Positions 7,082-23,842 of a stretch of 64,000 nucleotides of DNA are shown here, piece after piece (position 1 is the stretch's first letter; every line of letters starts with the position of its first letter). The notes beneath the pieces are model-generated. The model was not told where the DNA came from. It ran no database searches and saw only the letters and a program-made list of their open reading frames with translations. The position numbers were made by a program, and so were the translations under genes. Source of the DNA: an uncultured Candidatus Saccharibacteria bacterium (GTDB taxonomy: Bacteria; Patescibacteriota; Saccharimonadia; Saccharimonadales; JAGQNJ01); assembly GCA_964577565.1 (NCBI GenBank), contig CAZNZL010000002.1:88650-152649 (forward strand), written 5' to 3'.

Positions 7082-8140
7082 ATGGTGTTTACGTCTGTTC
7101 GGTTACAGAATTATCGGTCGTACCAAGACGGTGCCTTTGAATTTAGCCCAAACGTAAACATAATTGTTGGCCCCAACGCGAGTGGTAAAACCAATTTACT
7201 TGACGCCCTGCATCTAAGTGCTAATGCCACATCAATTAAGCCGTCTCGCGAACGTATGGTGCGTGTGGGTGCTAATTGGGCGCGAGTTGATACATTGACT
7301 AACACCAACCAAACGCGGGCTGTAAAGCTCCGAGAAAACGAAACTGGGCTTATTATTGAGGTTGATGAAAAGTCATACAAGCGCTTACCGCAACGTTTGC
7401 GCCTACCTATTATTTTATTTGAGCCAAGCCAGCTCTATCTCATAACCTCATCGCCTGATATGCGACGAACACTCATTGACGATATGCTCGAAAAGCTTGT
7501 TCCTGCCTTTAGTAAACAAAAAAATAACTACTTAAAAGTCTTGCGGCAGCGTAACGCACTCCTTAAGCAGCCAATCGAACGGGTCAAACAGCAAATTTTT
7601 GCCTGGGATATTCGTTTAAGCGAGTTGGCGGGCCATATTGTTGAGCACCGCCTTACGTTACTAGAGGATATGAACGCCAAAGCCAGCGCTATATACAGCG
7701 ACATTGCCCAGCACGACCACCATATTAACTTTTCGTACGATAGCAAGATTCCGCTTCCGGGCTATGCAACCAATCTTACAAAAGTGCTCCAAACATCACT
7801 AGAAAACGATCATCACCGAGGGTTTACGGGGTATGGGCCTCACCGCGACGATATCACCATTGCAATTGATAACGATGATATACGAGATGTGGCTTCACGA
7901 GGAGAAACCAGAAGCATTCTCTTAACAGTCAAGATTATTGAAGGTACATTGCTTGAAGCGGCGTATGAGCACAAGCCGCTATTACTGCTGGATGATGTCT
8001 TTGGTGAGCTCGATGGCCAACGCCGCAAACGGCTTATTGAATTTATTGGTGGTAACCAGGTTTTTATAACCACCACCGACGCAGACATCATTGGCCACGA
8101 GTTTGCACAGCAAACAAATATAATTTATACCAATAGTTAA
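7082..8140 (+). CDS. recF: DNA replication and repair protein RecF
   Basis: N-terminal Walker A GPNASGKTNLLDAL and C-terminal LLLDDVFGELD (Walker B / ABC signature region). Follows dnaN. Confidence 0.9.
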   Translation: MVFTSVRLQNYRSYQDGAFEFSPNVNIIVGPNASGKTNLLDALHLSANATSIKPSRERMVRVGANWARVDTLTNTNQTRAVKLRENETGLIIEVDEKSYKRLPQRLRLPIILFEPSQLYLITSSPDMRRTLIDDMLEKLVPAFSKQKNNYLKVLRQRNALLKQPIERVKQQIFAWDIRLSELAGHIVEHRLTLLEDMNAKASAIYSDIAQHDHHINFSYDSKIPLPGYATNLTKVLQTSLENDHHRGFTGYGPHRDDITIAIDNDDIRDVASRGETRSILLTVKIIEGTLLEAAYEHKPLLLLDDVFGELDGQRRKRLIEFIGGNQVFITTTDADIIGHEFAQQTNIIYTNS

Positions 8141-9738
8141 TTAATTGAATAAACCACTTTGTATTTTTTTGTATCCAAGCCGCTATTTCGAATTTGTGAT
8201 TCAATTATAGCTTTTTTTTCGGCAATTTCTTTAGGGTCATACGCATAGCTAGCCAGGGATTTGTTAAACACGGTTCTTGTAACATCAGGAACAACCAGTA
8301 TGTTATTTTTATGTATTGAAACAGCTCTCACCTCAGGCGAGTCCATTAAACGTGAAATATGAGTATCGATTCCATCACTGCGGCCACTACTAATAGCCAA
8401 TACACTTGATCTATTATTCTTTTCTATACACAGGAGGGTTTTATCGCTGTTAATCTGTCGGATTCCGCAAAAAGTATAGTCTCGAAATGAGTATCGGTAA
8501 TATCCCGTCATAGTTTCGGGATTGATTGTTAACAAACCAGAATCTGTTACTGCTAAAATCCCCCTGTTGTAAACTTCCATTTGCCTAACATTAGGTATGG
8601 TTCCGGTTTGCTCTAATTCATTCTGATTAATGGTATATAAATATAGCGTTTCATCGCTTAACACGCACAGTTTATTACGGCCACATAGTCGAGCTTGGCT
8701 TGCTGCAAAATCTAATCTATATCGCCGCTCGTTGTTATTCGAATAAATAACTACTTCGCTAAAGTTCAAAGGAGAATCATCTGGAGACGAGCCTTCGTCT
8801 TCTTCCTCGAAGTATTTATTGCTAATCACTGAAGTACTTGGGTTCAAGAAGCTATAACCAAGATATTCGGGGTTGTAATGCTGGTTATTTAGGATGGTAA
8901 TACTGTCATCAGCGGTGCTTATTCCATAGAAATTTATACCAGATAATTTAGTTGGCTGAATATTCAATTGCTGTGGGGGTGTTGAGAGGTTTTGGTAATA
9001 AAGGAACTCATCGCCCAGAGTACCGTAAACAAGGTAGCCGTTTTTATAGGGGGATATACCATATTCTTTATCTGGATCCAACCCTTCAACTTTCTTAAAC
9101 GCGTTCAAAGCGACCGTATGTGTCGAGGTATTGACGGGGTATAGTCCAAATTCTGTACCGTGCTCATCTTTATGGCTAACAAATGCTTTAAGTTGACCAG
9201 AATCTATAACAAACCCTAACAAACTAATCTCATTAGCGTCAACCGCTAACGGTAGGCTATAACCGGGCGAATTATTTGAAGGACCAACATGAAAGTTAGC
9301 GCTACTAATACTACCACCACACTGCCAACTAATTAGGTTATCCCCGTTTTCTGAATAAAGGCATTGGCTGGGTTTATCTCCGATGTATTGTCGTGCCTCT
9401 TCTTGTTGGTGTTTTGAGTTAACATGAGTCGTTTGAAAAAAACCCCGAGCGTTGGCAACAGAGAAATAACTACCATCTCTACCAGAAGTGGTAACTCTGT
9501 ACACGCCTCTCTTAACAAGTTTTCTTACATTGCCCCTAAACGTACCAGCAACTTGTGTATTTTCGTTTTGTATTGTGAAATTTATGTTGTTTGTGCCGGA
9601 AGATGTGTTTATTTGTATAAAAGAGTACTGTGAGGCTGCGAGGATTGCAATTAAGCACATACTCGTTAGTAAGATTAATATTTTATGTCGGTAGATCTTG
9701 TGAATCATTAAACCAATTAGTGAATTTTGTTGCATCAT
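8137..9738 (-). CDS. Secreted or membrane-anchored hypothetical protein (533 aa), last gene of the T4SS-like operon
   Basis: N-terminal hydrophobic signal/anchor (ILILLTSMCLIAILAASQ). A 4-nt overlap with the upstream gene suggests an operon. No recognizable catalytic motif. Confidence 0.5.
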   Translation of the reverse strand: MMQQNSLIGLMIHKIYRHKILILLTSMCLIAILAASQYSFIQINTSSGTNNINFTIQNENTQVAGTFRGNVRKLVKRGVYRVTTSGRDGSYFSVANARGFFQTTHVNSKHQQEEARQYIGDKPSQCLYSENGDNLISWQCGGSISSANFHVGPSNNSPGYSLPLAVDANEISLLGFVIDSGQLKAFVSHKDEHGTEFGLYPVNTSTHTVALNAFKKVEGLDPDKEYGISPYKNGYLVYGTLGDEFLYYQNLSTPPQQLNIQPTKLSGINFYGISTADDSITILNNQHYNPEYLGYSFLNPSTSVISNKYFEEEDEGSSPDDSPLNFSEVVIYSNNNERRYRLDFAASQARLCGRNKLCVLSDETLYLYTINQNELEQTGTIPNVRQMEVYNRGILAVTDSGLLTINPETMTGYYRYSFRDYTFCGIRQINSDKTLLCIEKNNRSSVLAISSGRSDGIDTHISRLMDSPEVRAVSIHKNNILVVPDVTRTVFNKSLASYAYDPKEIAEKKAIIESQIRNSGLDTKKYKVVYSIN

Positions 9739-11660
9739 GCAGGCTCCCAGAATTCCAACTGGAACTCTTTTTTAATATCGACATGAAAGTGATCGGCGTG
9801 TCCAGATATGCACTTAACCTGTCCTTCAAGTCCCTTAGTTCGTGCATAGGACAATATTTGTTGGAGTGAATCATCACCCCGAGGAGGGCACCACCAAATA
9901 TTTCGAAGAACACCCGTGTCTGCAAATAACTTACCTAATGTAATAGTTGCGTTTTTGTCGTATGTTCCCTTCCATGATTTTGTATGACTTGCAACCTGAA
10001 GTTCACCTTCTCCACTTAGATCCACTGCGATCCCAATGTTATGTGATTTATGGCCACTCGCATTTAAATCACCAATTCGGAGCTTGGATTTGCCCTGCAT
10101 CGCATTGTTGAATGCCAGTGCGACACTATAAAGTACACAAACTAGCTGTTGACTTCCGTAGCGCTGACTTTGAGAGGAGTAAATAGTATATTCCCCAGCC
10201 GGAGCATCGGGTAACTTGAAGTACCCCTTACGCTGAGTATGTGGTTCAAGTACGGCTGGGCAGGTTATACCGGGAAGACTGGCTGAAGTATGGCACCCGG
10301 GCGTTCCGGTATTGCTTGGAGCAGAACCACCAAACTCAGCAAGAATAGATGTTGAGAATGGTAAGCGAATACCCATGTGTGGTATACAGGCTGATTCACT
10401 ACTACACGGTGACTCAAATCTTGCTAGAAAAATATACGTTGCCTCTTCAACGGTTGTGGCAGCTCGTAGTGCTGATAACACTCCCGGGCGAACATCTTCT
10501 TCCAGCTCTTTTTTTAAAAACTCTAGTTGTAACTCGAGTGAGTTAACGGGTTGGCGCCTTTCCCTTGCAAAATTTAATAAATTTGTTTGGCGGCCACCGA
10601 GCCATTGTGCCAGCCCCCAAGCTCTACCATGCGGGTATTCAGATGTAGTTCCCGGGTATGCTGCTATTGGGTTAAAGCCAGATTCAGACTGTAGGTTACC
10701 CATTATTCCGGCAGCCTGCGGTGCAGTAAAGCCCATTGTGCCCACCAAGAAATTCCATACCTTTTCTCGGTTGTCGTTTCCGGGCAGTAAACTAGCTGAA
10801 CCTCCCGGCGCACAACTACAGTTGCCTCCTGTGGTAGCACTTGAATTTTGATTCACTGCTGAAGCACTTCCCAGAGCAACTGAATTAACTACAAGGTCGG
10901 TTAAACTGGCAATGCCTTCCTGTGTAGGATGCAAGCCATCTCGAAGATTGCCGTTTGGATCATTCGTTGGACTTACGGTTGGATCACCTCCCGGAGAGAC
11001 TAATTTAAACCAATCTATAATTGAATATCTACTTGAGCTGGACAAATCACCTAACCGTTGATTAAATTCCCCTAAATAAGCTAAGTTATTAGGCCATGCT
11101 GCGGTTCCTACAGTATTAACCCACCAGACTTCAATTGTTGGGTTTTTTTGACGAATAGCGGCGATAACTTGTTCTATCGGATTATTATTGAGGCCTCCAT
11201 TCGAACCCAGTGCAACAACTATTCCCTGTGCATTTTGAATTTTTGAAGCGTCTGCATCGACTGCTTCTCTGGCTGGCGCGAGACTGCCTTCTGCCGTAGG
11301 AGCTCCAATGCCTCCACCGGTCCAAGACCTTCCAGCTGCTGCATTAATGGTGGCAGTCATCCCTTTTTCAGAAAACTTACGTTTATACTCGGCTTCAGCA
11401 GCAACGGTAATTGAATCCCCCAACACGTAGACATTAGTAATGGCTTGCGCTGAAGATTGCGGACCGCAAGAATCTGCATAATCAAAGAATCGGCTGCCAC
11501 CGTCAATTATCGATTTTTGTTCTGGTGAAAGAGCCACAACAGTTTGAAGCGTAGATGCCAAGACAAAAATAAATGCTGCACAAAATGATCCTAAATGTAG
11601 TCTGCTAACAGTTGAGCTAAACATTGCTAATATTTTATATAATCGTTTCTTACGTGACAT
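9735..11660 (-). CDS. Multi-domain secreted peptidoglycan hydrolase (SGNH/GDSL-like + phage-tail-lysozyme-like + M15 zinc peptidase-like)
   Basis: Signal/anchor at the N-terminus. VYVLGDSITV fits an SGNH block I. GIMGNLQSESGFNP...GLAQW resembles the phage tail lysozyme family. C-terminal SGHKSHNIGIAVDL...GHADHFHVDIK resembles the H-x6-D...H zinc site of VanY/M15 peptidases. Confidence 0.6.
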   Translation of the reverse strand: MSRKKRLYKILAMFSSTVSRLHLGSFCAAFIFVLASTLQTVVALSPEQKSIIDGGSRFFDYADSCGPQSSAQAITNVYVLGDSITVAAEAEYKRKFSEKGMTATINAAAGRSWTGGGIGAPTAEGSLAPAREAVDADASKIQNAQGIVVALGSNGGLNNNPIEQVIAAIRQKNPTIEVWWVNTVGTAAWPNNLAYLGEFNQRLGDLSSSSRYSIIDWFKLVSPGGDPTVSPTNDPNGNLRDGLHPTQEGIASLTDLVVNSVALGSASAVNQNSSATTGGNCSCAPGGSASLLPGNDNREKVWNFLVGTMGFTAPQAAGIMGNLQSESGFNPIAAYPGTTSEYPHGRAWGLAQWLGGRQTNLLNFARERRQPVNSLELQLEFLKKELEEDVRPGVLSALRAATTVEEATYIFLARFESPCSSESACIPHMGIRLPFSTSILAEFGGSAPSNTGTPGCHTSASLPGITCPAVLEPHTQRKGYFKLPDAPAGEYTIYSSQSQRYGSQQLVCVLYSVALAFNNAMQGKSKLRIGDLNASGHKSHNIGIAVDLSGEGELQVASHTKSWKGTYDKNATITLGKLFADTGVLRNIWWCPPRGDDSLQQILSYARTKGLEGQVKCISGHADHFHVDIKKEFQLEFWEPA

Positions 11661-11662
11661 AC

Positions 11663-14452
11663 TTATTTTCTCACCTCTGTCATTACAGCATTAAAGTAGG
11701 CGTCATCAATATCGATCTTGCTTCCGCCGCACTTATTATATGCCTTGTGTGGGTGAATGCCGGATATATTACCGCACACTATGCTGTCTGAAGAAATAGC
11801 CTCAGTGCTTATATTATATTTTTGAACAAGATACTTCACGAGTTGCACTACGGCATCGAACTTTTTTCTATTAGTTGTTGGTCCGGTGGCTCCAAAATCT
11901 TCTGGCAGACCTTCAATTTCAATACCAAATGTCGTTGAGTTGGCCCCGGATGCATGGTTAACCTTATCGTCTTCGTTTGGGGTTAGCTGGTAAATATTGC
12001 CGTCGGCAGTAATGCCAAATTGAACTCCCAAGTTTCTCTCGCGCAGCGTCTCGGCCAAGCTATCAATGCCTTTACCATTAGAGCGTCCACCCCACCAATG
12101 CAAGGTAATACCTTGTGGTGTTATTTTTTCACCCGTTGTCGGCAGCGATGGTTGATATTTTTGAATCGAAGCATTTGAAGTGGTGGTTTGAGCGGGCGAA
12201 CCCTCTATGCCTATTTCGGCGCAAGCTTCTTCGTCAATACCTTCATAGCACGCCATTGCGGTGATGGCGGCTTTGTCGGCTAAATAGAACCGATAAGCCG
12301 TTAAGTCTGAATTGTTTCTGTCGGTGCACTTTTCTTTGTTATCTTCAAGCTTGATATAGCTCGGCGCTTGCGTGTATGTTAGCACCCCCGTGTCGGGGTC
12401 TATGGTAGCACCAAAACATGCCTCACCATAATCGCGGTTCATTCGTTCAAGTAGTTCGGGGTTGTTTTCGAACCGTTCGGCATTTTCGTAAGGGTTTTCG
12501 GCGCCGTTATCGAGCTCATCAAGCGTATAACCAAACTTATCTACCCCATAATCAAATGGCTCTGTGGTTGCGGCTGACACACCTGGAATAACTGACCCAA
12601 GGCTTTTTACTAAACTTGAAAAGGCTTTCAGGGGTGCCTTTGCAAACGATGCGAGGGTACGCTGGGTGTCTATAAACTCTGGATTTTTAATAATCGCGCT
12701 AGCTATCAGCGAGTTGGGTTCGTACGGGTCTACTATGCGGGCATACCAAGATTTATGCTTCATTTCTCGTTTTTCTTGCAGTTGCTGTTCACGCAGTAAC
12801 GCTCTGCGGTCACCGTCGCTTAATGCGGTGCAACCAAAGACTTGGCACTCGTTGTTTGCTGCCATAAATGCCCCCGAGTCACCCACGCTGCCAAGTGTGG
12901 CCCCTACTAAACCTGCTGCGTCCAATGCATCACCGGCCAACCATCGAACCACATCATCCATTACAGCTCCAAGAGCAACGTTTTGAGCCGCCTCAGAGCC
13001 AACAGAAACCAATAAGGATATAGGGCCAGATACTGAAAGTGCAATTCCCCCCACCGCCAATGCAATACCCCCAAGCGTAGAGTTTACTATTCCGCACAGA
13101 TGTGACACGCCCGGTGCATCTGTGATGGTGTCAATTGTTCTAAAAAAAGCTGGTTTTTCTTTGCCGGGTTTGGCAGATTCCGGAATTTTTTGCCCGGTAT
13201 TTTCGTTACCGAGCCCGTGCTGAATGCTTTCAGCATCAAAAACCGATGTTTTAGATTTTTCGTCATATAAATCTTCATATATGGCGCCAACCTCATCCAT
13301 GTTAACATCGTTACCAGATTGAATCTGAGAAGCCACAGAAATAATATCCATCGCTGTTCTTATAGAGGGTAGTTCAATATTTGATGCCTGTAATTCATGT
13401 GAAGCATCCCCTAATGCATCTAATCCACACAGCAGTCCTACTACTGCCGTGGCTCCTACACCCTTACCAAGGGCACCCCTCACTCTGCTAACTTTTTGTT
13501 CTGTGGTTAGGTTGGGGTCTCGCGCTGTGCGTTGAATTTCTTCGTTTCCTGCGTCAACTTCAGCTGCTTTAGCCCTGTCTTCATCTGAGGCTGGGTTTTC
13601 AGGGTCATCTTCTCGTGAGTTTGCTACCCTCGTTTCTGGGGTTGAACCATCTTGAATCTTTTTGGCGCGCTCGTCCTTTCGTTTTTTGATATACTCTCTC
13701 AAATCCTCATCAGCTGCTTTAGCAATATTTTTAAGTGGGTGGAAATCAACCCCACCACGAATTTTTAAGGTGCGACTTGCAATCGAAGTGCTTACGCCAT
13801 TGATATCGAGCGCATGAGTCATGGCTGAAATAGCGCCCCGGCGAGTTCGGGCCGATTCAGCACTTAAATCAAGGGTTGTAACGGTGCTGCCGTTCGGGGG
13901 GTCTGGAATATCAAAGCCGGAGGCTCGCATTTTTTCTAACGACTTCTTGCCTTCTGGGGTCGATATGTCAATGTCAATACCGCGAATTCGTGCAAAGCCG
14001 TCATGTCGTGCTGTCATACCACGTGCTGCGAGCTTTTTGTCGTAGTGATTGCCAAGTTTATTGCCTAAATAACTTAAGTTTCGACGGTGTGGTTCGTTTC
14101 GAGTGCGAGCCCACTTTATAAGTTTGCCAGTTCGAGTGTCGGAAAGTTCCTCGATATCACTAAAGTGTTTTTGGAACAAGCTGGCAATTTGTATGATCAT
14201 TGCCGGCCCTGACAAGAAGGAAGAAATCATCAAACTAATACCAATAATGATTCCTGCCGTACCGCTACCAATAAGAGCTTGCTTCTTTCTAAACTTAAAA
14301 CGGAGCTTGTCTTTTTTTGACAAGTTAGTATCCCACGGGCTGTTGCTTGAATCGCTAGAAGGATTATTACTCTCAAGAGCTGCCGCCTCTTTTTGTTCGG
14401 CTGATGTTGGAGTCGGTGTGGCTTTTTTGTCTTCTTTGTCGTAAACGGGCAC
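11663..14452 (-). CDS. Large membrane-anchored protein (929 aa) with a C-terminal N-acetylmuramoyl-L-alanine amidase (Amidase_2/PGRP)-like domain
   Basis: N-terminal TM segment (ALIGSGTAGIIIGISLMISSFLSGPAMIIQIASLF) followed by a long variable region. The C-terminus ITLHWWGG...HASGANSTTFGIEIEG...GIHPHKAYNKCGG resembles amidase_2. Confidence 0.5.
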   Translation of the reverse strand: MPVYDKEDKKATPTPTSAEQKEAAALESNNPSSDSSNSPWDTNLSKKDKLRFKFRKKQALIGSGTAGIIIGISLMISSFLSGPAMIIQIASLFQKHFSDIEELSDTRTGKLIKWARTRNEPHRRNLSYLGNKLGNHYDKKLAARGMTARHDGFARIRGIDIDISTPEGKKSLEKMRASGFDIPDPPNGSTVTTLDLSAESARTRRGAISAMTHALDINGVSTSIASRTLKIRGGVDFHPLKNIAKAADEDLREYIKKRKDERAKKIQDGSTPETRVANSREDDPENPASDEDRAKAAEVDAGNEEIQRTARDPNLTTEQKVSRVRGALGKGVGATAVVGLLCGLDALGDASHELQASNIELPSIRTAMDIISVASQIQSGNDVNMDEVGAIYEDLYDEKSKTSVFDAESIQHGLGNENTGQKIPESAKPGKEKPAFFRTIDTITDAPGVSHLCGIVNSTLGGIALAVGGIALSVSGPISLLVSVGSEAAQNVALGAVMDDVVRWLAGDALDAAGLVGATLGSVGDSGAFMAANNECQVFGCTALSDGDRRALLREQQLQEKREMKHKSWYARIVDPYEPNSLIASAIIKNPEFIDTQRTLASFAKAPLKAFSSLVKSLGSVIPGVSAATTEPFDYGVDKFGYTLDELDNGAENPYENAERFENNPELLERMNRDYGEACFGATIDPDTGVLTYTQAPSYIKLEDNKEKCTDRNNSDLTAYRFYLADKAAITAMACYEGIDEEACAEIGIEGSPAQTTTSNASIQKYQPSLPTTGEKITPQGITLHWWGGRSNGKGIDSLAETLRERNLGVQFGITADGNIYQLTPNEDDKVNHASGANSTTFGIEIEGLPEDFGATGPTTNRKKFDAVVQLVKYLVQKYNISTEAISSDSIVCGNISGIHPHKAYNKCGGSKIDIDDAYFNAVMTEVRK

Positions 14453-14472: not shown

Positions 14473-16422
14473 TTACATTGCCGGTGGTTGGTATGGCGTA
14501 TCTTGATTATCGGGACCTAGCTCAATACTGCCTTGTGGCTGGTCAAAGGTGCCCTGTTGCAAGGCTGCCTGGTCTTCGAGCTGTTGGACTTGTTGCGGGT
14601 TGGTGGTAATAAGACCTGTTTCGGTCGGGCTGGCAATTATTTGAATGTGAACGTGGTTTTGGCCAGCAAAGAATAAGCCTTGCCCTACCGGGAACTGGCT
14701 CAGGCGTTTCTTTTCTTCGCTGGTGAGCTTAAAGACATCGGCCAAAATATCGACTGCCGACGGTGACTGTTTTAATAATATTTGTAGCGACGCATTTGCC
14801 ACAATTGCTCTACCCATGCGCGAGCCAATAAAATCTTCAACGTCTTGAGAAATGGTCGTGATGCCAAGATTATATTTGCGGGCTCGTTTGGCCAGGCTAA
14901 ACATAAAGTTGGCCGAATCTTCATACTTCATTAATTGCCAGGCTTCGTCGACGATCATGATGCGGCGTTTCTTGTCGGCTTTGGCGCGGTTCCAGATGTA
15001 ATTTAAGACAATATACATCGCGACTGGGCGAAGCTCGTCTTCAAGATCACGAATATTAAACACGACCAACTGGTTATTAATATCTATGTTTGATTGTTGA
15101 GAAAAAATGCCGGCAAATGTTCCGGTTGTATATTTACGAAGCCGCTGTGCTAACTGCGGGCCGGTATTGCCCATATGAAGCAAGGTGTCATAAAGGTCAT
15201 TAATAGTTGGCGGCGGCGAATTATGAGTTAGCGGATCATTGGTAATACCAGCTTTGGCGTATGTTTCAATCAGTGCAGCATCAAGGTCGGCTTCTTCAAC
15301 GGGACTTAAGGCTGGTGCCACCGTTGCATTGCCGCCAGATTGTATTTGTGCTTGGGCACCACCCATCATCAAGCGCAACAAGCCATGTAGGGTTATAAGG
15401 TTACTGCGAAGTGCGTTGTCGGCTTCATCGGCATCTAGCACGCGGGGCAGATCAAAGGGGTTGATGCGCGTTGAAGAGTTAAGACTCAGGCGAACATACG
15501 CACCACCAACCGCCTCACTCATGCGTTGGTATTCGTTTTCAGGGTCAATAATTATCACTTCGGTGCCAAACATCATGCTGCGCAAAGCTTCAAGCTTAAC
15601 TGCAAACGACTTACCTGCACCTGACTTGGCAAAAACAACCGAGTTGCCATTTTCTAGGCTAAAGCGGTCAAATATAACCAGCCCCGAGTTATGCATATTG
15701 ACGCCATATAAAATGCCGTTGTCTTGCGTAAGATCGGCGCTGGTGAATGGAAAACTCGTACTCAACGCGCCCGTGCTCATATTCCGTCGTATCTGTAACT
15801 GGTCAGTCAACTGCGGTATTGTGCTGTTTAGCCCTTGTTCTTGTTGAGACGTTGCAGGTTTTGAGTATACTAATTGCTGGCCAAGAAGTGACTCAATTTT
15901 ATGAGTGACAAATTCGAGCTCGTCCATGCTATTGGCATATACGGTAAAGTAAAAGCCAAGCCGGAAGAAGCGCTCCTCGCCCACCTGAAGCTTGTCGCGA
16001 ATTTCTTCAGCATCCATAATGGCAGCTTGCGTACCGGGGTCACGTACCCGGCCTTTTTCAGCATTAATCTGGATGTCAGCCTCTAACTGGCTCACCTTTT
16101 TGCGTAGGTTCTCAAGCACCACCTGGCTTTCAACCGGGTAGATGTACATAGAAATATCCATAATCTCATCAATATTTATAAGACTACTAAGCCAACCAGT
16201 ATATAACTGCCTGGGGTAACCAAAAACGTAAAACGTTCTAGCAAGCCTGGTACCAATCTGAAAGTACGAGGCACTAAACTCTAGTGAGCTTGGTGCAATA
16301 AAATCGCGCAGCGCCGTAACACCCTTCTGAAATGCGGCACTGACTTCTTGAACTTCGCGGGCTGCCTGAGCTTGAGCTAAGGCAACGGGGTCTACTTTTG
16401 GTTTCTTTTTACCAAAAGCCAT
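14473..16422 (-). CDS. virB4: Type IV secretion ATPase VirB4/TrbE/TraE family
   Basis: Walker A VVFAKSGAGKSF, Walker B RIMIVDEAWQLM, 649 aa. Matches the VirB4/CagE C-terminal ATPase architecture. Confidence 0.85.
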   Translation of the reverse strand: MAFGKKKPKVDPVALAQAQAAREVQEVSAAFQKGVTALRDFIAPSSLEFSASYFQIGTRLARTFYVFGYPRQLYTGWLSSLINIDEIMDISMYIYPVESQVVLENLRKKVSQLEADIQINAEKGRVRDPGTQAAIMDAEEIRDKLQVGEERFFRLGFYFTVYANSMDELEFVTHKIESLLGQQLVYSKPATSQQEQGLNSTIPQLTDQLQIRRNMSTGALSTSFPFTSADLTQDNGILYGVNMHNSGLVIFDRFSLENGNSVVFAKSGAGKSFAVKLEALRSMMFGTEVIIIDPENEYQRMSEAVGGAYVRLSLNSSTRINPFDLPRVLDADEADNALRSNLITLHGLLRLMMGGAQAQIQSGGNATVAPALSPVEEADLDAALIETYAKAGITNDPLTHNSPPPTINDLYDTLLHMGNTGPQLAQRLRKYTTGTFAGIFSQQSNIDINNQLVVFNIRDLEDELRPVAMYIVLNYIWNRAKADKKRRIMIVDEAWQLMKYEDSANFMFSLAKRARKYNLGITTISQDVEDFIGSRMGRAIVANASLQILLKQSPSAVDILADVFKLTSEEKKRLSQFPVGQGLFFAGQNHVHIQIIASPTETGLITTNPQQVQQLEDQAALQQGTFDQPQGSIELGPDNQDTPYQPPAM

Positions 16423-17294
16423 TACAGCAGCTCCTTGTCCAGGTTGGGTTGGGGGGCTTCACCCTGGCCTTTGGTAATAACAGGAGCGGTCAAATCATCA
16501 AAATTCTTAAGCTGTTGCCTGGAGGAGGTGTCGGGGTTATAAGAGTCGTAATAGAGCTCGATTAACTCTTGCGTATCAAGCGGTACGCCGTGCACGCCGC
16601 ACTGCAGCAAACTGGCCAAAACGTTTTGCACACGGTTTCGTAGCTCGGTTTTGGCAGCTTCAAGGTCTTGTTCATTAACAACCACATGCTGCTCTTGTTT
16701 ACTAAATAGGCTGGTAAGGCCAGAAAAGAAGTTTTTACTTTGCGTAATAGCTTTCTGAACATCTGCCTTTGGAAAGAACGGTATCACCATATAGAATCGT
16801 TTATCCATAATATTCGTTTGCATTGACAAGTTGGTTATAAAGCCAAGGTAATCTTCCATGAGCATAGCTAGCAGCATATTATCGTGTTCGCTACGAATTT
16901 TATCGAGCCGTTCTATATACGGCCGAATATCAACACGCTCTGAACGCACAAAAATCTGTACCGGAAAGTACAGCGAGTTCAAAAAGCTTTGATAACCAGC
17001 TTCAACTGCTTCACGCTCTTGGGGGCTCATAAGGTCAAAGTTAATAGATTTTAGCATAATAACTGAGCGAAATGACCCGTCATTCATAATGACCACACCG
17101 TCTCTAATTTCGGCAAACTGTAAGGTATTTTGGGTGCTATTAGGGTTAGAGGGCGGAGCTTGCGGGAATGGTTGTTGACCAACAGCTTGGCCAGCCGGCG
17201 GTTGACTTCCCGACGGATAGCTTTGTTGTGGCGGAATAGGCTGGTTTTGGGCCGCCTGATTTGGTGTGTAGGGTTGATTTTGATCCGGATTCAT
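16422..17294 (-). CDS. P/Q-rich protein, possibly the detached N-terminal domain of VirB4
   Basis: Its stop overlaps the virB4 start (TAATG). A low-complexity P/Q-rich N-terminus is followed by a conserved-looking globular part (VIMNDGSFRSVIMLKSINFDLMSPQEREAVEAGYQSFLNSLYFPVQIFVRS). Confidence 0.4.
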   Translation of the reverse strand: MNPDQNQPYTPNQAAQNQPIPPQQSYPSGSQPPAGQAVGQQPFPQAPPSNPNSTQNTLQFAEIRDGVVIMNDGSFRSVIMLKSINFDLMSPQEREAVEAGYQSFLNSLYFPVQIFVRSERVDIRPYIERLDKIRSEHDNMLLAMLMEDYLGFITNLSMQTNIMDKRFYMVIPFFPKADVQKAITQSKNFFSGLTSLFSKQEQHVVVNEQDLEAAKTELRNRVQNVLASLLQCGVHGVPLDTQELIELYYDSYNPDTSSRQQLKNFDDLTAPVITKGQGEAPQPNLDKELL

Positions 17295-17328: not shown

Positions 17329-18285
17329 TTAGTGTAGGCTTATAACCACTTCGTCGTCAGCGCCCTGGTCTTTTATACGCTTGGCCTGACCGGCGATAGT
17401 TTGAACAGAAAGATCATCACTGTTTTTGACAATATTTAGTATAGCAGGGTCGCGAGGAGGTGTCACGGCCTGAGTACTCTGTTTTGCTTCCTTTTGCACG
17501 GGGTTGCTTCCAGGCGGATTGATGGTTTTCATATTGCTGTATTCATTGTGCTGGCGAGGCTCGGCACCCGAGGCTTGATCATCAGCTATAACTGGCGGTA
17601 GGGTGGGTCTTGCGGCTTGTGCTTTTTGTTGTTCTTCTTTGGACTTCTCGATACTGCGCTTAACCGCATCCTTATATTTAACCGAGGCCTTACCAATTAA
17701 GTCGTCCATAGACTTAGCCCGTGGGTTAGCGGCGGGGTCTAGCATATCGGCTGCTGGTTCTGCTGCTACAACAGACCCGCTGAGAGCCGCTATATCTACA
17801 AGCCTATCAGAGCTGCTGGTTTGAGCACCAGGGTACATGTTTGTTGCGTTTTTTATGGCCCACCCACGAGTATCAAGCGTCGTGGCCAGGGTTTTAAGAC
17901 GGCTTTTAACCTCGTCTTGAGAATAGCCTTTGGTCAGCTGCTTTTCTTGCTTTTTGGGAGCGGTAATTGTGACCAACTGCTTAATACCGGTCTGGTCCCA
18001 TATGCGTCGGCGCGGCTTTAAAAAGAAGCGTATTTTTGCCAGTAGCCAGATTTCAGTTGACTGGGCACCGCCTAGCGGAGCCGATAGCAAGCCAAAAAAC
18101 AACGCCGGTGGCACAAATATGAAGCCTATTGGCCAAAAAGAGGTTAAAAATAATCTAACCGCCAAAAAGCCGCTTACAATGGTTATAACTGCGTATATAA
18201 ACTGGCGTAAACTCAGCCAGCCAATGAGCTTATCTTCTGCTTCAATATCTTGGATTACTTTATACTGCGCCATAAGTTTGTGCAT
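17329..18285 (-). CDS. Membrane protein with two N-terminal TM helices, T4SS-associated (VirB3-like topology?)
   Basis: Two N-terminal TM helices (FIYAVITIVSGFLAVRLFLTSFWPIGFIFVPPALFFGLL) followed by a hydrophilic domain. Located between the VirB6-like and VirB4 genes. Confidence 0.4.
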   Translation of the reverse strand: MHKLMAQYKVIQDIEAEDKLIGWLSLRQFIYAVITIVSGFLAVRLFLTSFWPIGFIFVPPALFFGLLSAPLGGAQSTEIWLLAKIRFFLKPRRRIWDQTGIKQLVTITAPKKQEKQLTKGYSQDEVKSRLKTLATTLDTRGWAIKNATNMYPGAQTSSSDRLVDIAALSGSVVAAEPAADMLDPAANPRAKSMDDLIGKASVKYKDAVKRSIEKSKEEQQKAQAARPTLPPVIADDQASGAEPRQHNEYSNMKTINPPGSNPVQKEAKQSTQAVTPPRDPAILNIVKNSDDLSVQTIAGQAKRIKDQGADDEVVISLH

Positions 18286-20081
18286 TACGCTCCATCAGGT
18301 GGCTGAACAGTTTCACCCGCAGCATTTGGTCCAATAATACTTGGGTTGTCGCGAGCACTCGCATATTCGCGTACACGATTATGGAAATCGGGGTGTTCTT
18401 GAGGGTTGATTCGTGCCTCGTCTAGAAGTTGGCGAACATTTAATTCCACAGATTGGGTAATGGTATTGCCAGCAGCGTCTTTAGCAGGTTCGCCGTCAGC
18501 GCCTCTTACGGGTACTGTCCTGGTTTCACCAGTACTCATTGCAAATACATTATTTGCGAACTCCTCAGCCTTTTTAGGTGAAACACTAGATAACATACTA
18601 TGTAAGTTTCCTACATCCGCCAATGCCTTATCAATAGCTCTCTGGTCTCCAGTCTCTAACGCATCGCTTAGTAATTTTTGAGACTGCGCAGCAAAAGTTT
18701 CAACAGTCCTCTGGTGGCTACCAAGTACTTCCCGCGGATCTGCCCCAGCAAACGCTCCCTCTATCTGGTCGCCAGCAGAAATTTTCTTTTGAACGAAATC
18801 AACAGTTGAACCGTATGAATTGGAGCTAAACTCTGCACGACCCTTGTTCGCCTTCATCCATCCAGCTGCATCATAGGCTGTAATCAAGCCGGCGTTAACC
18901 ATTTGGTTAAGCTCTTCTTGCATTTGTGCTAAGCCTTCCTCCCCAGCTTCATAGGCGGTATTGGTATGGGCAACCCGGAACTTCTGTGCTGCAACGGCCA
19001 TACCTGTTGTGCCAACTCGTGCCCCTACGGCAGATTCTGCTCTAGCAAGCGCCATTTCTGCCTCTTGTTGGGTGTGCCCCATTGCTTGATATTGTCTGAC
19101 GAATTCTCTTCTGGTCATTGAGGTATCACGTAATAGTTTCGACGCGTCATCGTCGTTAAAGGCACGTGCCCCACCCTTCTCTAATTTTTCAGCAGCGGCA
19201 CGTTCCAAAACCGCTTGTTCTTGATCTTTCCACCTGTTTCTTCCCCTACTAGACAAGCTCCAACTTCCATTTGCGCCCAAAGAGGCGGCCCTTCTATAAA
19301 GACTACCCGTTCGGCCGCTACCAAGGCGTGTACTCGCGTTCATTCTGTTTTCATGAAGTTGCTTGGCTCGTTCTTGGCGCGCATTGCGCAAGCGGTCAAA
19401 CATACCACGGCTGCGGTTGTTGGCAATACCGGCAATGTTCGCAAAAGCGCTACCTGCAACCTGGAAGGTCTTAGGTATCAAAAAGTATGGCCCATAGAAA
19501 GCTAGTAATATAATCCCTACCTTAAATGCACCATTGCCATAGACATCTGGGGATGCAGCAATTCTAGCGGCAACCCGGCCACCTGCGACAATAAGCAATA
19601 TTAAAGGATACATGAGCAGTACTTTGCTGAAGCTCTCCCACCAAATCTTCCATAGCTTGTCAGTACCGGGTAATATCCAAGCTACTAACGCAAGAGGAGC
19701 ACTTACAACCAATACAACAATTAATATTTGGCGTATAGCTAGCACAAAAAACGCAATGGCTAAGGCCAGCAAGATAGAAGCACCAAGCAGGAGTAAACCC
19801 ACCCCGCCCCCGAGCGCAAACGCCGTACCACCAACAACAGCCGTACCACCTACTAGACCCGTAAGAGTAAGACCTACCGGTCCAACTGCTTCTTGTAGAA
19901 TCTTAGTTATTTCTAGCTCGTCACGACCACCAAACGGTGCGTACAGTAAACCCTCCAAGCCCCAAGCTACATTGCTTACCACAACTATTAAAAGCGTGAA
20001 AAGCGGCCATGATAGCTGAATAAGAATAACGGCGATTAACAGGCGCGGTAATACTTTTTTAACCGTATAGGCATCAAACAT
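18285..20081 (-). CDS. Polytopic membrane protein, VirB6/TrbL-like
   Basis: At least five TM helices in the N-terminal half, then a long hydrophilic C-terminal extension. This is the topology and operon position typical of VirB6/TrbL. Confidence 0.55.
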   Translation of the reverse strand: MFDAYTVKKVLPRLLIAVILIQLSWPLFTLLIVVVSNVAWGLEGLLYAPFGGRDELEITKILQEAVGPVGLTLTGLVGGTAVVGGTAFALGGGVGLLLLGASILLALAIAFFVLAIRQILIVVLVVSAPLALVAWILPGTDKLWKIWWESFSKVLLMYPLILLIVAGGRVAARIAASPDVYGNGAFKVGIILLAFYGPYFLIPKTFQVAGSAFANIAGIANNRSRGMFDRLRNARQERAKQLHENRMNASTRLGSGRTGSLYRRAASLGANGSWSLSSRGRNRWKDQEQAVLERAAAEKLEKGGARAFNDDDASKLLRDTSMTRREFVRQYQAMGHTQQEAEMALARAESAVGARVGTTGMAVAAQKFRVAHTNTAYEAGEEGLAQMQEELNQMVNAGLITAYDAAGWMKANKGRAEFSSNSYGSTVDFVQKKISAGDQIEGAFAGADPREVLGSHQRTVETFAAQSQKLLSDALETGDQRAIDKALADVGNLHSMLSSVSPKKAEEFANNVFAMSTGETRTVPVRGADGEPAKDAAGNTITQSVELNVRQLLDEARINPQEHPDFHNRVREYASARDNPSIIGPNAAGETVQPPDGA

Positions 20082-21128
20082 CTACAGTCCGCCCCCTATC
20101 GCCTGAGAAATAACCATAACAAGCCCTATTATAATAAGTGCAAATGTTGCAACTATCCTAAAGTAAGACCAAATGGCTCGCAGCTCAGAGCTATCGTACA
20201 GATTCTGACCATCTACATTAAGCAACGAATCAGCTATATCAAAGAGACTCGTTATACCATCAGACACGAGCTCTAAAATACCACAGACAATCCAGCCGGC
20301 GCTAAGACCCATTCTTTCGGTACATGACTGAGCTTGTTCTGAAGTGCTTTCATCGGCTCTAATGTCATACTTACCCCTGGGAGCTTCAATAACTATGTTA
20401 AGAATTTCTGAAGATTTTTTTATGGCAGGTATACATTTATCAGCTACAACCGAACAAAGCTGATACGTGCCGGGATTTATATTGTCAAAGTTAGCGGTGT
20501 AGGCGACGCCGTCAGGGGTTGTTCGGCGGTTGGCCTGCTTGCGTGCGACTTCTGCACCACTTGAATTTTTTAAAGTTAATGTATCAGATGCCGGGGCCTT
20601 TGAGGCATCGATTGCATCCAGTCCCGAGTCTGTTAAATCCGCCCCCTCCCAGTCTATGAGACTAGTTGCTCTTATGATCTTTGTCTCCGGATTGTCGACA
20701 TTACTATTTGATCTATTTAGTGTAACGGGCGCATTCGAGAACTCTGAAATTACATTTTGTGGACAGGCAGGTACTTGAGAACTTGTGCCATTTCCAATAG
20801 AGTTTAAGGTTCTGGGTTGAGTTAATGTTACCCCTGCAGTATTTCCATTAGGGGGCACGAATATGCTAATAAACATCCCACACCTTGAATTGCCGTTAAC
20901 GAGACCTTGCACCAGTGCACCCTCGCCAGCATAAATACCAGCATTGCTGCTCTTTAGGTTGCCAAAAGTATCCCCCCCTATTGTAAGCCTGATAGTACTA
21001 GAGTCTACGAACGTTGCTGACATGTTTGGGGCAGCATGAATTGAACCACGTAATATGAGTGGGGATAAAAAATTAAACAGTAGTAAAGCCACCGAAGTAA
21101 GGAGGGAGGTTGTTTTTTTTATTTTCAT
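20082..21128 (-). CDS. Secreted protein with a C-terminal membrane anchor (348 aa), first gene of the minus-strand T4SS-like operon
   Basis: N-terminal signal peptide (TSLLTSVALLLFNFLSPLILRGSIHA) and a C-terminal TM helix (VATFALIIIGLVMVISQAIGG). Confidence 0.4.
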   Translation of the reverse strand: MKIKKTTSLLTSVALLLFNFLSPLILRGSIHAAPNMSATFVDSSTIRLTIGGDTFGNLKSSNAGIYAGEGALVQGLVNGNSRCGMFISIFVPPNGNTAGVTLTQPRTLNSIGNGTSSQVPACPQNVISEFSNAPVTLNRSNSNVDNPETKIIRATSLIDWEGADLTDSGLDAIDASKAPASDTLTLKNSSGAEVARKQANRRTTPDGVAYTANFDNINPGTYQLCSVVADKCIPAIKKSSEILNIVIEAPRGKYDIRADESTSEQAQSCTERMGLSAGWIVCGILELVSDGITSLFDIADSLLNVDGQNLYDSSELRAIWSYFRIVATFALIIIGLVMVISQAIGGGL

Positions 21129-21251: not shown

Positions 21252-21713
21252 ATGCAGCCCGTAGCCCACAACAGTAATTCTCCAAACAACGCAAAAAAAA
21301 TCATCATTATAATGATGATTTTGGGCTTGCTCATCGCAAGTCTAACAATATTTTTTATTCAGCAAACCAATAAAAGCAAAACAGTTCCATCAGAGCACGT
21401 TCCAGCGCTTGAGTACATTAATCAGTTTAACTCATTTATGGTAAATGACCCAGATAAAGCGTATGAAGAGATCGAGGGTCGTTTCCGGCCAGAGCGACAG
21501 TTATTCAATGCAAGCGCCAGCTTTTTTAGGAGTGATATAGAAATTAACAAATGTAAGTACAAGGACGCAAAGGATTATTTTGATCAAGTCACTGAGGTAA
21601 CCATCTCCTGTCCGTTAAGAAACAACCAGCCCAGTGTAGCCATTGAATATCAAGTTAGTAAGTCAACAGACAATAGTTTATCTATATTAAGTTATGAATT
21701 CGCTGCAGACTAA
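21252..21713 (+). CDS. Small membrane-anchored hypothetical protein
   Basis: N-terminal TM segment (IIIIMMILGLLIASLTIFFI). First gene of the plus-strand set, divergent from the T4SS operon. Confidence 0.4.
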   Translation: MQPVAHNSNSPNNAKKIIIIMMILGLLIASLTIFFIQQTNKSKTVPSEHVPALEYINQFNSFMVNDPDKAYEEIEGRFRPERQLFNASASFFRSDIEINKCKYKDAKDYFDQVTEVTISCPLRNNQPSVAIEYQVSKSTDNSLSILSYEFAAD

Positions 21714-21801: not shown

Positions 21802-22281
21802 GTGAAAAGTCTAACAAAAAAACTAGCCTCGGCAAAAAAAATGTTATTCGTAGCCACTCTACTTATTACTTTTAGCTTTTTAGTGATTTGGAGTAGCGAT
21901 ACGACCGGAGCCCAAAGCAACAACATACCCTCCGGCGGTAACGTGAATTCTCAAAACCCCGACCCAGGCCTGCCGATAAATACAGATAGATCAGCTATCG
22001 TTGATTGTAATGGAGATACCGCAAGCGGGGCCAAGAGGTGTCTAGAGAAAAACCCATTAGTGCAGCGCACCTTACAAGGTATTAACTTTTTGTCGGCTGG
22101 TGCGGGTGTTGTTATTACGGCATCTATAGTCATAGCGGGCATTCAATATGCCGCAGCTGGCCCGAACCCACAACAGGTTGCTGCAGCCAGAAAACGTATT
22201 ATTAGCTCGATTGTTGCCTTGCTTGCGCTGCTTTTCTTATACGCATTTTTGCAATGGCTCGTGCCCGGAGGAGTGATCTAA
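21802..22281 (+). CDS. VirB2/TrbC-like T4SS pilin paralog 1
   Basis: N-terminal signal/anchor, a Cys pair (VDCNGDTASGAKRCLEKN), and a C-terminal double hydrophobic helix (GINFLSAGAGVVITASIVIAGIQYAAAG...IISSIVALLALLFLYAF). Confidence 0.55.
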   Translation: MKSLTKKLASAKKMLFVATLLITFSFLVIWSSDTTGAQSNNIPSGGNVNSQNPDPGLPINTDRSAIVDCNGDTASGAKRCLEKNPLVQRTLQGINFLSAGAGVVITASIVIAGIQYAAAGPNPQQVAAARKRIISSIVALLALLFLYAFLQWLVPGGVI

Positions 22282-22670
22282 TGCTATACACACTTATTTC
22301 TTTCTTTGCCGCTGCTGGTGACGGCTGTCTGCCTGCTAATTCGGCGAAAAGCTTTTTTGGTCTGCCCCCCTGGTTTAAATATTTAAAGGGCGAGGAAGAT
22401 CAGTTTGGTAGGTGTGTCCCGGTTTTTGGTTGGGACAATCTAGAGTCGTTATGGTCCATTGCGCTGGTAGCGATAGAAATTTTACTCCGTATCGGTGCCT
22501 TGGTGGCGCTGGGGTATATAATATTTGCTGGATTTCAATATATTACTAGTAGTGGCGAACCCGATAAAACCAAGAATGCCAAAACTACCATAATCAACGC
22601 TTTGGTTGGGCTCGTGATTGCTATTTTATCTAGTTATATTGTGTCATTTATCGGGAGTCAAATAACGTAA
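22281..22670 (+). CDS. VirB2/TrbC-like T4SS pilin paralog 2
   Basis: Shares the C-terminal block ...AGFQYITSSGEPDKTKNAKTTIINALVGLVIAIL with paralogs 3-6. Start placed at the ATG with RBS GGAGGAG (22281); the ORF track extends it to 22254. Confidence 0.6.
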   Translation: MLYTLISFFAAAGDGCLPANSAKSFFGLPPWFKYLKGEEDQFGRCVPVFGWDNLESLWSIALVAIEILLRIGALVALGYIIFAGFQYITSSGEPDKTKNAKTTIINALVGLVIAILSSYIVSFIGSQIT

Positions 22671-22675
22671 TAGTT

Positions 22676-22972
22676 ATGAAAAACATTGTATTTTTACTTG
22701 CGCAGCAAATTGTTGACCCGAGCTTGGTAAATATTCCTAAACCGGATGCCAGTGACGGGCAAGTTCAGACCGTTATTAGGCTTGTCATGATGATAGCTGC
22801 TGCGGTAGCGGTACTTATGGTGGTGATTGGTGGTCTGATGTATGTAACTTCAAATGGCGAACCTCAAAGAGCAGCCCGGGCTAAGGACACAATTTTATAC
22901 GCCATCATTGGCCTGGTTGTGGCTATAATGTCAAACGTAATTGTGATGTTTGTACTAGGGAGAGCTGTCTAA
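22676..22972 (+). CDS. VirB2/TrbC-like T4SS pilin paralog 3
   Basis: C-terminal block VIGGLMYVTSNGEPQRAARAKDTILYAIIGLVVAIMSNVIV. Confidence 0.6.
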   Translation: MKNIVFLLAQQIVDPSLVNIPKPDASDGQVQTVIRLVMMIAAAVAVLMVVIGGLMYVTSNGEPQRAARAKDTILYAIIGLVVAIMSNVIVMFVLGRAV

Positions 22973-23356
22973 ATGAAACGGTTGCTCATAAAGCTGTCGT
23001 TAATAGCAACTGTCTGCGCTTCTTTGGTAGCGGTCCCGCTGGTTCATGCAGACGATCCGCTTGAGGCGGTTTGTAAAGGACCCCAAGCTTCTTCGTCTGC
23101 ATGCGTAAGCCGCACCAATCAAAACCCTGTGTTGGGGCCAGACGGAGTTCTCACCAAAGTCATTAAGATTCTGGTTATTGTTACCGCTGCGGCATCGGTA
23201 ATTATGATGATGGTCGGTGGTTTTCGCTACGCTATTTCAGCCGGCGACCCTTCAAATATCAATGCAGCAAAAAACACCATATTGTATGCGATTGTAGGCC
23301 TCATTATTGCAATAATTGCACAGTCTATCGTTTCATTTGTTATTAGTCGGCTTTAG
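22973..23356 (+). CDS. VirB2/TrbC-like T4SS pilin paralog 4
   Basis: Signal peptide, a Cys pair (AVCKGPQASSSACVSRT), and the C-terminal block MVGGFRYAISAGDPSNINAAKNTILYAIVGLIIAIIAQSIV. Confidence 0.65.
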   Translation: MKRLLIKLSLIATVCASLVAVPLVHADDPLEAVCKGPQASSSACVSRTNQNPVLGPDGVLTKVIKILVIVTAAASVIMMMVGGFRYAISAGDPSNINAAKNTILYAIVGLIIAIIAQSIVSFVISRL

Positions 23357-23383
23357 TTTTATAATAATACGAGAGGAACCAAA

Positions 23384-23767: not shown

Positions 23768-23842
23768 GTAAATAAACTTGAAAAACGCTACCGTCTTGTA
23801 GTACAGTGAAGGCAAATAGAATATGAAAGGAATCTCTCTATA

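Follow-up and report, generated by a model that had tools for sequence, protein, structure and literature searches.

A probable pair of modular wall-cutting proteins in a chromosomal type IV secretion operon of an uncultured Saccharibacteria bacterium

Two adjacent genes, here called ORF A and ORF B (ORF, open reading frame), encode modular peptidoglycan hydrolases within a type IV secretion system (T4SS) operon of an uncultured Candidatus Saccharibacteria bacterium, from a group of ultrasmall bacteria that live attached to a host. They lie in a 64,000-nucleotide stretch of contig CAZNZL010000002.1 (assembly GCA_964577565.1, positions 88,650 to 152,649; hereafter, the window), and we consider it probable that both proteins are dedicated wall-cutting components of this chromosomal, origin-proximal, conjugation-derived T4SS, a system that Saccharibacteria conserve. 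A first-pass annotation of the same DNA had placed the two ORFs at 9735–11660 and 11663–14452 (929 amino acids, aa); both exist at exactly these coordinates, on the minus strand, and the four lytic domains called in them all hold, the one ascribed to family M15 now more precisely as a LAS peptidase that resembles MepA/M74. In comparison with related genomes, hypervariability of the otherwise conserved machine is confined to the two hydrolase genes, and their catalytic modules would be interchangeable cassettes on two constant 'handles'—a short tag in A and a membrane scaffold in B.

Catalytic modules and constant parts of ORF A and ORF B

The two genes comprise the following features (TM, transmembrane; HMM, hidden Markov model; AF2, AlphaFold2).

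9735–11660, minus strand: ORF A, exported tri-modular peptidoglycan hydrolase (641 aa, ATG start; ORF and Pfam)
11535–11612, minus strand: signal peptide or anchor, hydrophobic, A residues ~17–42 (hydropathy scan)
11466–11534, minus strand: conserved post-signal-peptide tag ALSPEQKSIIDGGSRFFDYADSC, A residues 43–65 (tag HMM)
10914–11426, minus strand: SGNH/GDSL domain, likely peptidoglycan O-acetyl esterase, A residues 79–249 (PF13472; profile against PDB)
10398–10775, minus strand: phage-tail-type lysozyme (PF18013), A residues 296–421 (Pfam; phi29 gp13 match)
9738–10286, minus strand: LAS-type zinc peptidase, MepA/M74-like, A residues ~459–641 (AF2, Foldseek, profile against PDB)
11663–14452, minus strand: ORF B, membrane scaffold with C-terminal hydrolase module (929 aa, GTG start; ORF and Pfam)
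12203–14452, minus strand: lineage-specific scaffold with about three TM segments, B residues 1–750 (conserved in homologues)
12209–12250, minus strand: junction motif CYEGIDEEACAEIG, start of the variable tail, B residues 735–748 (strict regular expression)
11666–12121, minus strand: Amidase_2 (N-acetylmuramoyl-L-alanine amidase), predicted to face outward, B residues 778–929 (PF01510)

The esterase-like N-terminal domain of A matches PF13472 (Lipase_GDSL_2) at 34.2 bits, barely above the cutoff of 32.9, and its SGNH blocks are complete (GDS with S83, GSNG with N154, and DGLH with D241 and H244). When its profile was compared with PDB structures, the C-domain of OatA (6WN9/6VJP; the identity of 6VJP as an OatA structure is confirmed in PMC9487903) matched at E = 1e-11, with weaker matches to PatB and with lysophospholipase-like structures at E = 2e-3 or worse. 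With the OatA C-domain best and the lysophospholipases far behind, the domain falls into the peptidoglycan O-acetyl-handling branch. OatA-C, PatB and Ape1, its nearest solved relatives, have the Ser/Asn/Asp/His blocks in common with it; the AT3 acyltransferase partner domain of OatA is missing from A, and this lack, together with the fusion to a lysozyme, suggests the esterase direction, making the domain a likely peptidoglycan O-acetyl esterase. It might instead be a lipase or phospholipase acting on host membrane lipids, as the Pfam family name (GDSL-like lipase/acylhydrolase), the JGI label 'lysophospholipase L1-like esterase' on some relatives and the inability of Saccharibacteria to make fatty acids would allow; given the wide lead of the OatA C-domain and the constant fusion of the domain to wall hydrolases, we regard this as improbable.

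The next segment, previously described as phage-tail-lysozyme-like, is recognised by PF18013 (Phage_lysozyme2) at 101.6 bits against a cutoff of 28.2. Aligned with phi29 gp13 (3csr; E = 1e-5), it shares the 'QSES' motif, and its E326 stands opposite E45 of gp13, which we take to be the catalytic Glu.

For the C-terminal module of A, the LAS fold and clan implied by the earlier M15 call stood, but the family did not: M15, VanY and M15_3/4 models of Pfam gave no match to A at E ≤ 0.1. The nearest family, Peptidase_M74 (PF03411), reached 20.9 bits on residues 481–549, below its cutoff of 25—so that three of the four domain calls lie above curated Pfam cutoffs—and NF006947 reached 17.2 bits against a cutoff of 272. 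An AF2 model of the module had a pLDDT of 90, and Foldseek put MepA (1tzp/1u10; E = 1e-5, probability 1.0) at the top of its matches, ahead of Hedgehog N-domains; the sequence profile matched 1tzp at E = 0.008, in an alignment that spans both zinc motifs (H540-x6-D547 and H624-x-H626). H537, H540, D547, H621, H624 and H626 are invariant in this module. Model, first-ranked match and zinc motifs together argue for a LAS zinc peptidase nearest M74, and we assign the module, as modelled, to the LAS/Hedgehog-DD-peptidase fold (clan MD) without curated M74 membership. SLT, CHAP and NlpC/P60 domains had no Pfam match in A or B. MepA-like modules also occur free-standing in metagenomes, as ~240-aa proteins (P0076–P0097, homologues of A residues 440–641), and one partial relative, from a Patescibacteria group bacterium, carries the name 'pilin'.

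Outside its catalytic modules, A has an RKKR basic stretch ahead of its N-terminal hydrophobic core, followed by the tag of ~23 residues (43–65; consensus ALSxEQKKxxxxGxxYFDxxxxC). The tag HMM detected it in ten of ten proteins occupying the position of A at B-anchored loci, irrespective of their modules, a count that is descriptive, as these ten formed part of the HMM seed; it further matched 21 of the 57 sequences in our list of A homologues and none of 183 control proteins, and within the window A is its sole carrier. Across genomes, the proteins at this position have the signal peptide and the tag in common and almost nothing else. According to precomputed Pfam annotation, SLT or GH73 may stand in for PF18013 in A homologues, and their C-termini most often carry M23, with C39_2, VanY, NlpC/P60, Amidase_2 and CHAP also present.

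ORF B had been described as having an N-terminal TM anchor. The TM segment at residues 59–86 is indeed there, but the hydropathy scan predicts about three, with further ones at 324–344 and 449–481. The scaffold is kept in all 18 first-pass homologues, whose tails differ, and an exhaustive scaffold-only search retrieved 932 clusters (50% identity) at E ≤ 1e-3 and 487 at E ≤ 1e-30. It matched no solved structure by sequence or by fold, and structure prediction, informative for the C-terminus of A, gave a weak model here (pLDDT 54). Basic residues ahead of the first TM segment suggest an N-in orientation, and Cys 679, 709, 735 and 744 are invariant or nearly so, as would suit an ectodomain; three predicted TM segments, the N-in start and the four conserved cysteines within 679–744 would place the C-terminal half of B outside. 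The scaffold ends in a junction motif, CYEG(I/L)D(E/D)xxCxE(I/L)G (in short CYEGxDExxCxExG), which a strict regular expression finds in 101 of 154 B-family members and which is followed by an S/G/T/A-rich linker. In the window, the tail beyond it is the Amidase_2-like domain already noted in the first pass, matched by PF01510 at 51.5 bits on residues 778–892 (cutoff, 26) and by PDB 6srt at E = 5e-4. Tails of the amidase type conserve H785, E845/E847, H900/H902 and C908 with H-x7-C spacing, among which H785, H900 and C908 are putative zinc ligands by analogy.

The T4SS operon and its counterparts

Both genes were thought to be embedded in a T4SS operon, and their surroundings bear this out: VirB4 and PrgI/VirB3 genes lie upstream of them, a pilin array diverges from the operon, and the intergenic gaps measure −4 to +34 bp. 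The operon spans 21128 to 8137 on the minus strand, in the order 348-aa gene, 598-aa gene, PrgI/VirB3, 290-aa gene, VirB4, B, A and 533-aa gene. Apart from A and B, its features and the pilin array are:

20082–21128, minus strand: 348-aa exported or membrane protein, first operon gene (signal peptide and C-terminal TM segments)
18285–20081, minus strand: 598-aa polytopic protein, likely VirB6/TrbL-like (at least five TM segments, then a hydrophilic C-terminal domain)
17329–18285, minus strand: PrgI/VirB3-like protein (PF12666, 32.4 bits)
16422–17294, minus strand: 290-aa protein with a VirB4 N-terminal domain match, TraC/TrsD-like (first ~170 positions of VirB4 models only)
14473–16422, minus strand: VirB4-like ATPase, C-terminal two-thirds (NCBIfam conju_CD1110, 372.8 bits, cutoff 325; Pfam P-loop_TraG)
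8137–9738, minus strand: 533-aa membrane-anchored protein, last operon gene (one N-terminal TM segment)
21802–24259, plus strand: divergent array of five VirB2-like T4SS pilins (PF18895, 27–51 bits, five consecutive ORFs)

VirB4 appears to be split over two genes (16422–17294 and 14473–16422), judging from the model positions each product covers: the 290-aa protein matches positions 2–102 of CD1110, 19–172 of TIGR00929, and also a TrsD model, and the 649-aa protein matches positions 184–732 of CD1110. Relatives have the same ~290-aa gene, with the precomputed annotation PF26593 (TraC-like). The counterpart of the 598-aa protein in relatives is annotated PF19590 (TrbL_3) at the same position; B was considered as a VirB6 subunit and ruled out, as the 598-aa protein with its at least five TM segments holds that position. 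No significant family match was obtained for the first gene in Pfam, PHROGs or NCBIfam, nor any match in these three for the 533-aa protein, which has fast-diverging homologues at the same position in loci L008 (26% identity), L002 and L012; other lineages carry unrelated genes of 190–240 aa there. The pilin array agrees with arrays reported for Saccharibacteria, and a sixth small anchored ORF without family match lies beside it at 21252–21713.

The window is chromosomal and origin-near, with yidC, jag, rnpA, dnaA, dnaN and recF at 2.1–8.1 kb. Among its large ORFs we found no relaxase or coupling protein, and the literature likewise reports neither for the T4SS of this clade. The system is of the monoderm MPF_FATA type and conjugation-derived; CD1110, the family whose cutoff VirB4 exceeds, is itself a monoderm one.

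A scan for related loci with a 10-sequence alignment returned six loci, five of them in metagenome-assembled genomes of uncultured Candidatus Saccharibacteria, and further context came from contig look-ups with exact proteins. The order VirB6-like gene, PrgI, split VirB4, B, A and ~500-aa gene beside recF-dnaN-dnaA recurs on 11 further contigs. In the window, in strain ML1 and at 11 further loci, the A/B pair sits directly downstream of virB4, at the operon end opposite recF.

The matching operon of a cultured and genetically tractable relative, Ca. Southlakia epibionticum ML1, comprises SEML1_0003 to SEML1_0011 (Wang et al. 2023, Cell; PMC10633639), and A and B are the positional equivalents of SEML1_0006 and SEML1_0007. 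The former has 643 aa with PF01832, PF18013 (residues 299–431) and a Cys-proteinase fold, the latter 1113 aa with a C-terminal Hedgehog/DD-peptidase fold, and both are essential by Tn-seq in ML1 (PMC10633639); Quinonero-Coronel et al. (PMC12102498) likewise note that the peptidase and lysozyme homologues encoded after virB4 are essential there.

In the mechanism we propose, A would be exported by Sec, and its short post-signal-peptide tag would probably keep it at the machine. Its SGNH domain would most likely strip O-acetyl groups from MurNAc, its phi29-gp13-type lysozyme would cut the glycan strand and its MepA-like LAS zinc endopeptidase the peptide cross-links; the three-TM scaffold of B would hold Amidase_2 outside the membrane, where stem peptides would be removed from MurNAc. 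Jointly, A and B would open a local hole in the peptidoglycan for the T4SS channel and the VirB2-type pilus to pass—the same role as that of PrgK, TraG and CwlT in monoderm conjugation systems.

Other roles can be weighed against this setting. The organism encodes a Mur ligase and thus makes its own peptidoglycan, and general autolysins—serving growth, budding or daughter-cell release and merely adjoining T4SS genes—would be compatible with this, as a division role would be with the essentiality in ML1. Yet the site right after virB4 is kept across distant Saccharibacteria, with ORFs that overlap or nearly abut, and Gram-positive conjugation operons have hydrolases at the same position, which renders an autolysin role quite improbable. 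A somewhat less remote idea, but an unlikely one, is that the enzymes mainly feed an auxotrophic epibiont with muropeptides, amino sugars and amino acids freed from its host's wall, with channel opening secondary. Four complementary bond specificities would indeed reduce peptidoglycan to small fragments, and Patescibacteria, which lack many biosynthetic pathways, must take building blocks from their host; tight translational coupling to T4SS genes and the membrane-tethered B, on the other hand, point to local, machine-associated action, and uptake or recycling genes are not linked to the operon. Lastly, the pair could be what is left of a lysis or tail module from a prophage, since the lysozyme and amidase modules match tape-measure, tail and endolysin families of PHROGs. 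These matches are confined to the catalytic modules, phage structural genes are absent nearby, and the genes around the pair serve the T4SS and replication and are kept in different lineages, so that a prophage origin is effectively refuted.

Elsewhere in the window, a 554-aa serine recombinase gene (PF00239; 30472–32136, minus strand) abuts or overlaps a tRNA-Arg gene (30547–30623, plus strand); the lowest-GC stretch of the window (0.38–0.40, ~32000–36000) follows the recombinase, and the region is possibly a mobile element that has integrated here. A cluster of three tRNA-Ser genes (anticodons TGA, GCT and CGA) lies inside 2.5 kb (26420–28951) with small ORFs between them. At locus L012, in the T4SS operon of a relative, a 127-aa ORF with a precomputed CdiA_C annotation (PF18451; 2593–2976, plus strand) is found between the TrbL_3-like gene and PrgI and is followed by a 30-aa ORF; the two could be a T4SS-linked toxin/immunity pair.

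Turnover of the hydrolase modules

The clearest comparison was with a close relative, L007, whose proteins are 94.6% (VirB4), 92.6% (DnaA), 90.9% (DnaN), 78% (RecF) and 74% (B scaffold) identical to those of the window. Embedded in this conserved background is a segment that has been replaced altogether:

8093–12206, minus strand: variable cassette comprising the tail of B, the whole of A and the 533-aa gene (DNA comparison with L007)

Its flanks align to L007 at 75–77% nucleotide identity, and the cassette itself has no DNA homology to L007. Homology ends at 12207 (B residue ~748), such that the left breakpoint coincides with the conserved junction motif, and restarts at 8092 within recF. In between, 4.1 kb of the window (amidase tail, A and 533-aa gene) correspond to 2.4 kb in L007 (VanY tail, 372-aa transglycosylase-like plus CHAP protein, and 237-aa gene), and the tag is the sole part of A in common with the L007 CHAP protein. 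The gene downstream of A, considered as a candidate immunity gene for the tail, thus lies inside the cassette; its counterparts at loci that differ in modules form a single fast-diverging family, and unrelated small genes take its place elsewhere. We found no prior description of module shuffling or of defined junctions in these proteins in open-access papers and bioRxiv, and cassette-like modularity with defined junctions appears to be unreported.

Similar turnover was seen across the B family. We typed the tails of 154 members by seed HMMs, Pfam checks of cluster representatives and profile searches, in a sample of 50%-identity representatives and with module labels that are partly home-made, and distinguished at least 12 tail types:

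VanY tails, combinations included: 83 of 154
Divergent LAS-type tails, ~170 aa: 25 of 154
SGNH tails, alone or combined: 13 of 154
MepA-like tails: 11 of 154
M23 tails, one with an EEP domain: 8 of 154
Amidase_2 tails: 6 of 154
M14 tails: 5 of 154
Rarer tails: CHAP, C39_2, beta-lactamase-like, NlpC-like and GH-A-like

Some 84% of the B tails terminate in a LAS-type zinc peptidase. The Amidase_2 tail is a minority (~4%), and in the window the LAS peptidase sits on A instead. This LAS module of A is 34–44% identical to the tails of a B-family protein (P0073) and of the L003 protein, which argues that modules move between both scaffolds. The EEP-containing tail, in P0121 (~823–1231), has an Exo_endo_phos domain (EEP, nuclease/phosphatase-like) ahead of M23, the only module other than a wall hydrolase seen on the B scaffold.

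Mapped onto a neighbour-joining (NJ) tree of the scaffold with 154 tips, tail type requires 66 parsimony changes, compared with 69–77 for shuffled labels, in a test that uses a crude NJ tree of representatives at ≤50% identity; only 32% of nearest scaffold neighbours have the same tail type. Scaffold pairs above 80% identity agree in their tail, and a pair at 76% (window B and P0059) already differs. Tail type is thus nearly uncoupled from scaffold phylogeny. In most well-resolved genome pairs, a glycan-cleaving module (PF18013, GH73 or transglycosylase-like) is combined with a peptide-cleaving one (VanY, M74-like, M23, CHAP or divergent LAS), and the scaffold that carries each varies—a pattern suggesting that the machine needs both for its function.

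Which wall is being cut? Action on the organism's own wall is favoured by the Sec-type N-termini and by the parallel with PrgK, TraG and CwlT, whereas extreme module turnover in an otherwise vertically inherited and conserved machine favours a variable external substrate, that is, the wall of the host. Breaching of a host wall, as suggested in the first-pass annotation, is plausible, and the cassette-like turnover is indirectly consistent with it. In its full form, this possibility holds that the enzymes, or at least their variable modules, act mainly on host peptidoglycan at the attachment site, with a module repertoire tuned to host wall chemistry that adds to host range; it would extend the assignment of A and B to the T4SS and is compatible with it. 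That the T4SS core is vertical and conserved while the segment from the B tail through A to the 533-aa gene is wholly replaced, that tail type and scaffold tree are almost uncoupled, and that a junction motif precedes the variable tail, as in polymorphic effector systems, all speak for it, as does the finding that the T4SS is essential only for epibiotic growth, its role having been described as 'completely unknown' (PMC11665869). Conversely, Sec-type N-termini or TM segments are present in both proteins, as in self-acting T4SS hydrolases, no co-varying immunity gene was found at the compared loci, ordinary Gram-positive conjugative elements also vary in their hydrolase modules, and the parsimony test has the coarse sampling given above. 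On balance, we see action mainly on the host wall as a serious possibility that falls short of being the expected outcome. More tentative is the proposal that the B tail, A and the downstream gene form a hypervariable wall-breaching cassette within an essential T4SS that is otherwise inherited vertically, re-equipped by recombination at the junction and at the A tag with new sets of esterase, glycosidase, amidase and peptidase modules to match the peptidoglycan chemotype of new hosts.

Several points weigh against our assignment of A and B as wall-cutting parts of the organism's T4SS. For both hydrolase families, the enzymatic activities are predicted from domains and catalytic residues. The nearest solved relative of the SGNH domain is an O-acetyltransferase domain, so that the direction of its reaction is a matter of inference; no fold could be recognised for the scaffold of B, and the outward position of its amidase is predicted from hydropathy and conserved cysteines. 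Orthology with SEML1_0006 and SEML1_0007 is proposed from synteny, length and domain positions. Finally, module turnover is very high, more so than would be expected if the organism's own, presumably stable, wall were their only substrate.

With the constant handles—A tag, B scaffold and junction motif—defined, both the role of the T4SS and the host-range hypothesis become testable. If modules do track host walls, they would account for some of the host specificity seen in bacteria of the CPR (candidate phyla radiation) and provide a natural catalogue of combined wall-lytic enzymes, and the module set would be one of the genetic factors that set the host range of an epibiont, like the receptor-binding and lysin modules of phages.

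Comparison with known systems

Single modules of A have counterparts in well-known enzymes. E. coli MepA (M74; 1tzp/1u10) is the best structural and sequence match of the C-terminal module and keeps H-x6-D and H-x-H, but the two are only ~17% identical with a TM-score of ~0.5, and the module is here fused to other hydrolases, being elsewhere on the B scaffold or free-standing. The tail-tip enzyme gp13 of phi29 (3csr/3csq) has a homologous lysozyme module with an aligned catalytic 'QSES' region and pairs it with a LAS-type peptidase, M23 in gp13 and MepA-like in A; exactly the gp13 combination, PF18013 plus M23, is present in many members of the A family. In contrast to A, gp13 is a virion protein without signal peptide, SGNH domain or T4SS context.

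The architecture of B recalls polymorphic toxins and effectors (CdiA-CT, Rhs, T6SS/T7SS cargo), in which a constant N-terminal part is likewise joined to a variable C-terminal enzyme tail, with a demarcation motif at the junction and a tail type that varies independently of the constant part's phylogeny. Unlike the nuclease or pore-former tails of those proteins, B tails are almost all wall hydrolases; the scaffold sits in the membrane as part of an essential machine rather than being secreted as a toxin, and a co-varying immunity gene was not found at the compared loci.

As regards T4SS hydrolases, the pair had initially been set against the one small VirB1-like lytic transglycosylase of typical systems, a contrast that applies to diderm systems only: VirB1 analogues of monoderm systems, such as PrgK, TraG of pIP501 and CwlT, are large and multi-domain, which is the MPF_FATA norm (PMC12102498). 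PrgK (pCF10), TraG (pIP501), CwlT (ICEBs1) and TcpG likewise lie in a T4SS operon by virB4, start with a TM segment or signal peptide, combine two or three different wall-cutting domains per protein and are needed for system function according to the literature; at the A-position, L007 even has a protein that is transglycosylase-like plus CHAP. Differences are equally clear. The families in the window (PF18013, SGNH, M74-like and Amidase_2) depart from the SLT/CHAP/LytM/NlpC set of characterised T4SS hydrolases, two hydrolase proteins replace the single one of monoderm systems, the 750-aa three-TM scaffold of B has no counterpart in PrgK, TraG, CwlT or TcpG, and the T4SS is chromosomal, with neither relaxase nor coupling protein reported for the clade. 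A and B are thus functional analogues of the VirB1/PrgK/CwlT class, built from other domain families.

The nearest parallel remains the ML1 pair. It occupies the same site after virB4 and before recF-dnaN-dnaA, on the strand opposite recF, in an operon that likewise encodes PrgI, a ~290-aa protein and a VirB6-like protein and is accompanied by a pilin array. The proteins measure 643 and 1113 aa in ML1 versus 641 and 929 aa in the window, PF18013 is at nearly equal residues (299–431 versus 296–421), and both larger proteins end in a wall-acting module. Every flanking catalytic module is different: where A has SGNH and MepA-like LAS modules, the smaller ML1 protein carries a glucosaminidase-like domain at its N-terminus and a Cys-proteinase domain at its C-terminus, and the larger one ends in a Hedgehog/DD-peptidase fold rather than Amidase_2. 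Together with the monoderm literature, the ML1 pair indicates that gene pairs of this kind are not new—it is ordinary for a T4SS operon of the monoderm type to encode multi-domain hydrolases—and that the window carries a new combination of modules of an already published kind.

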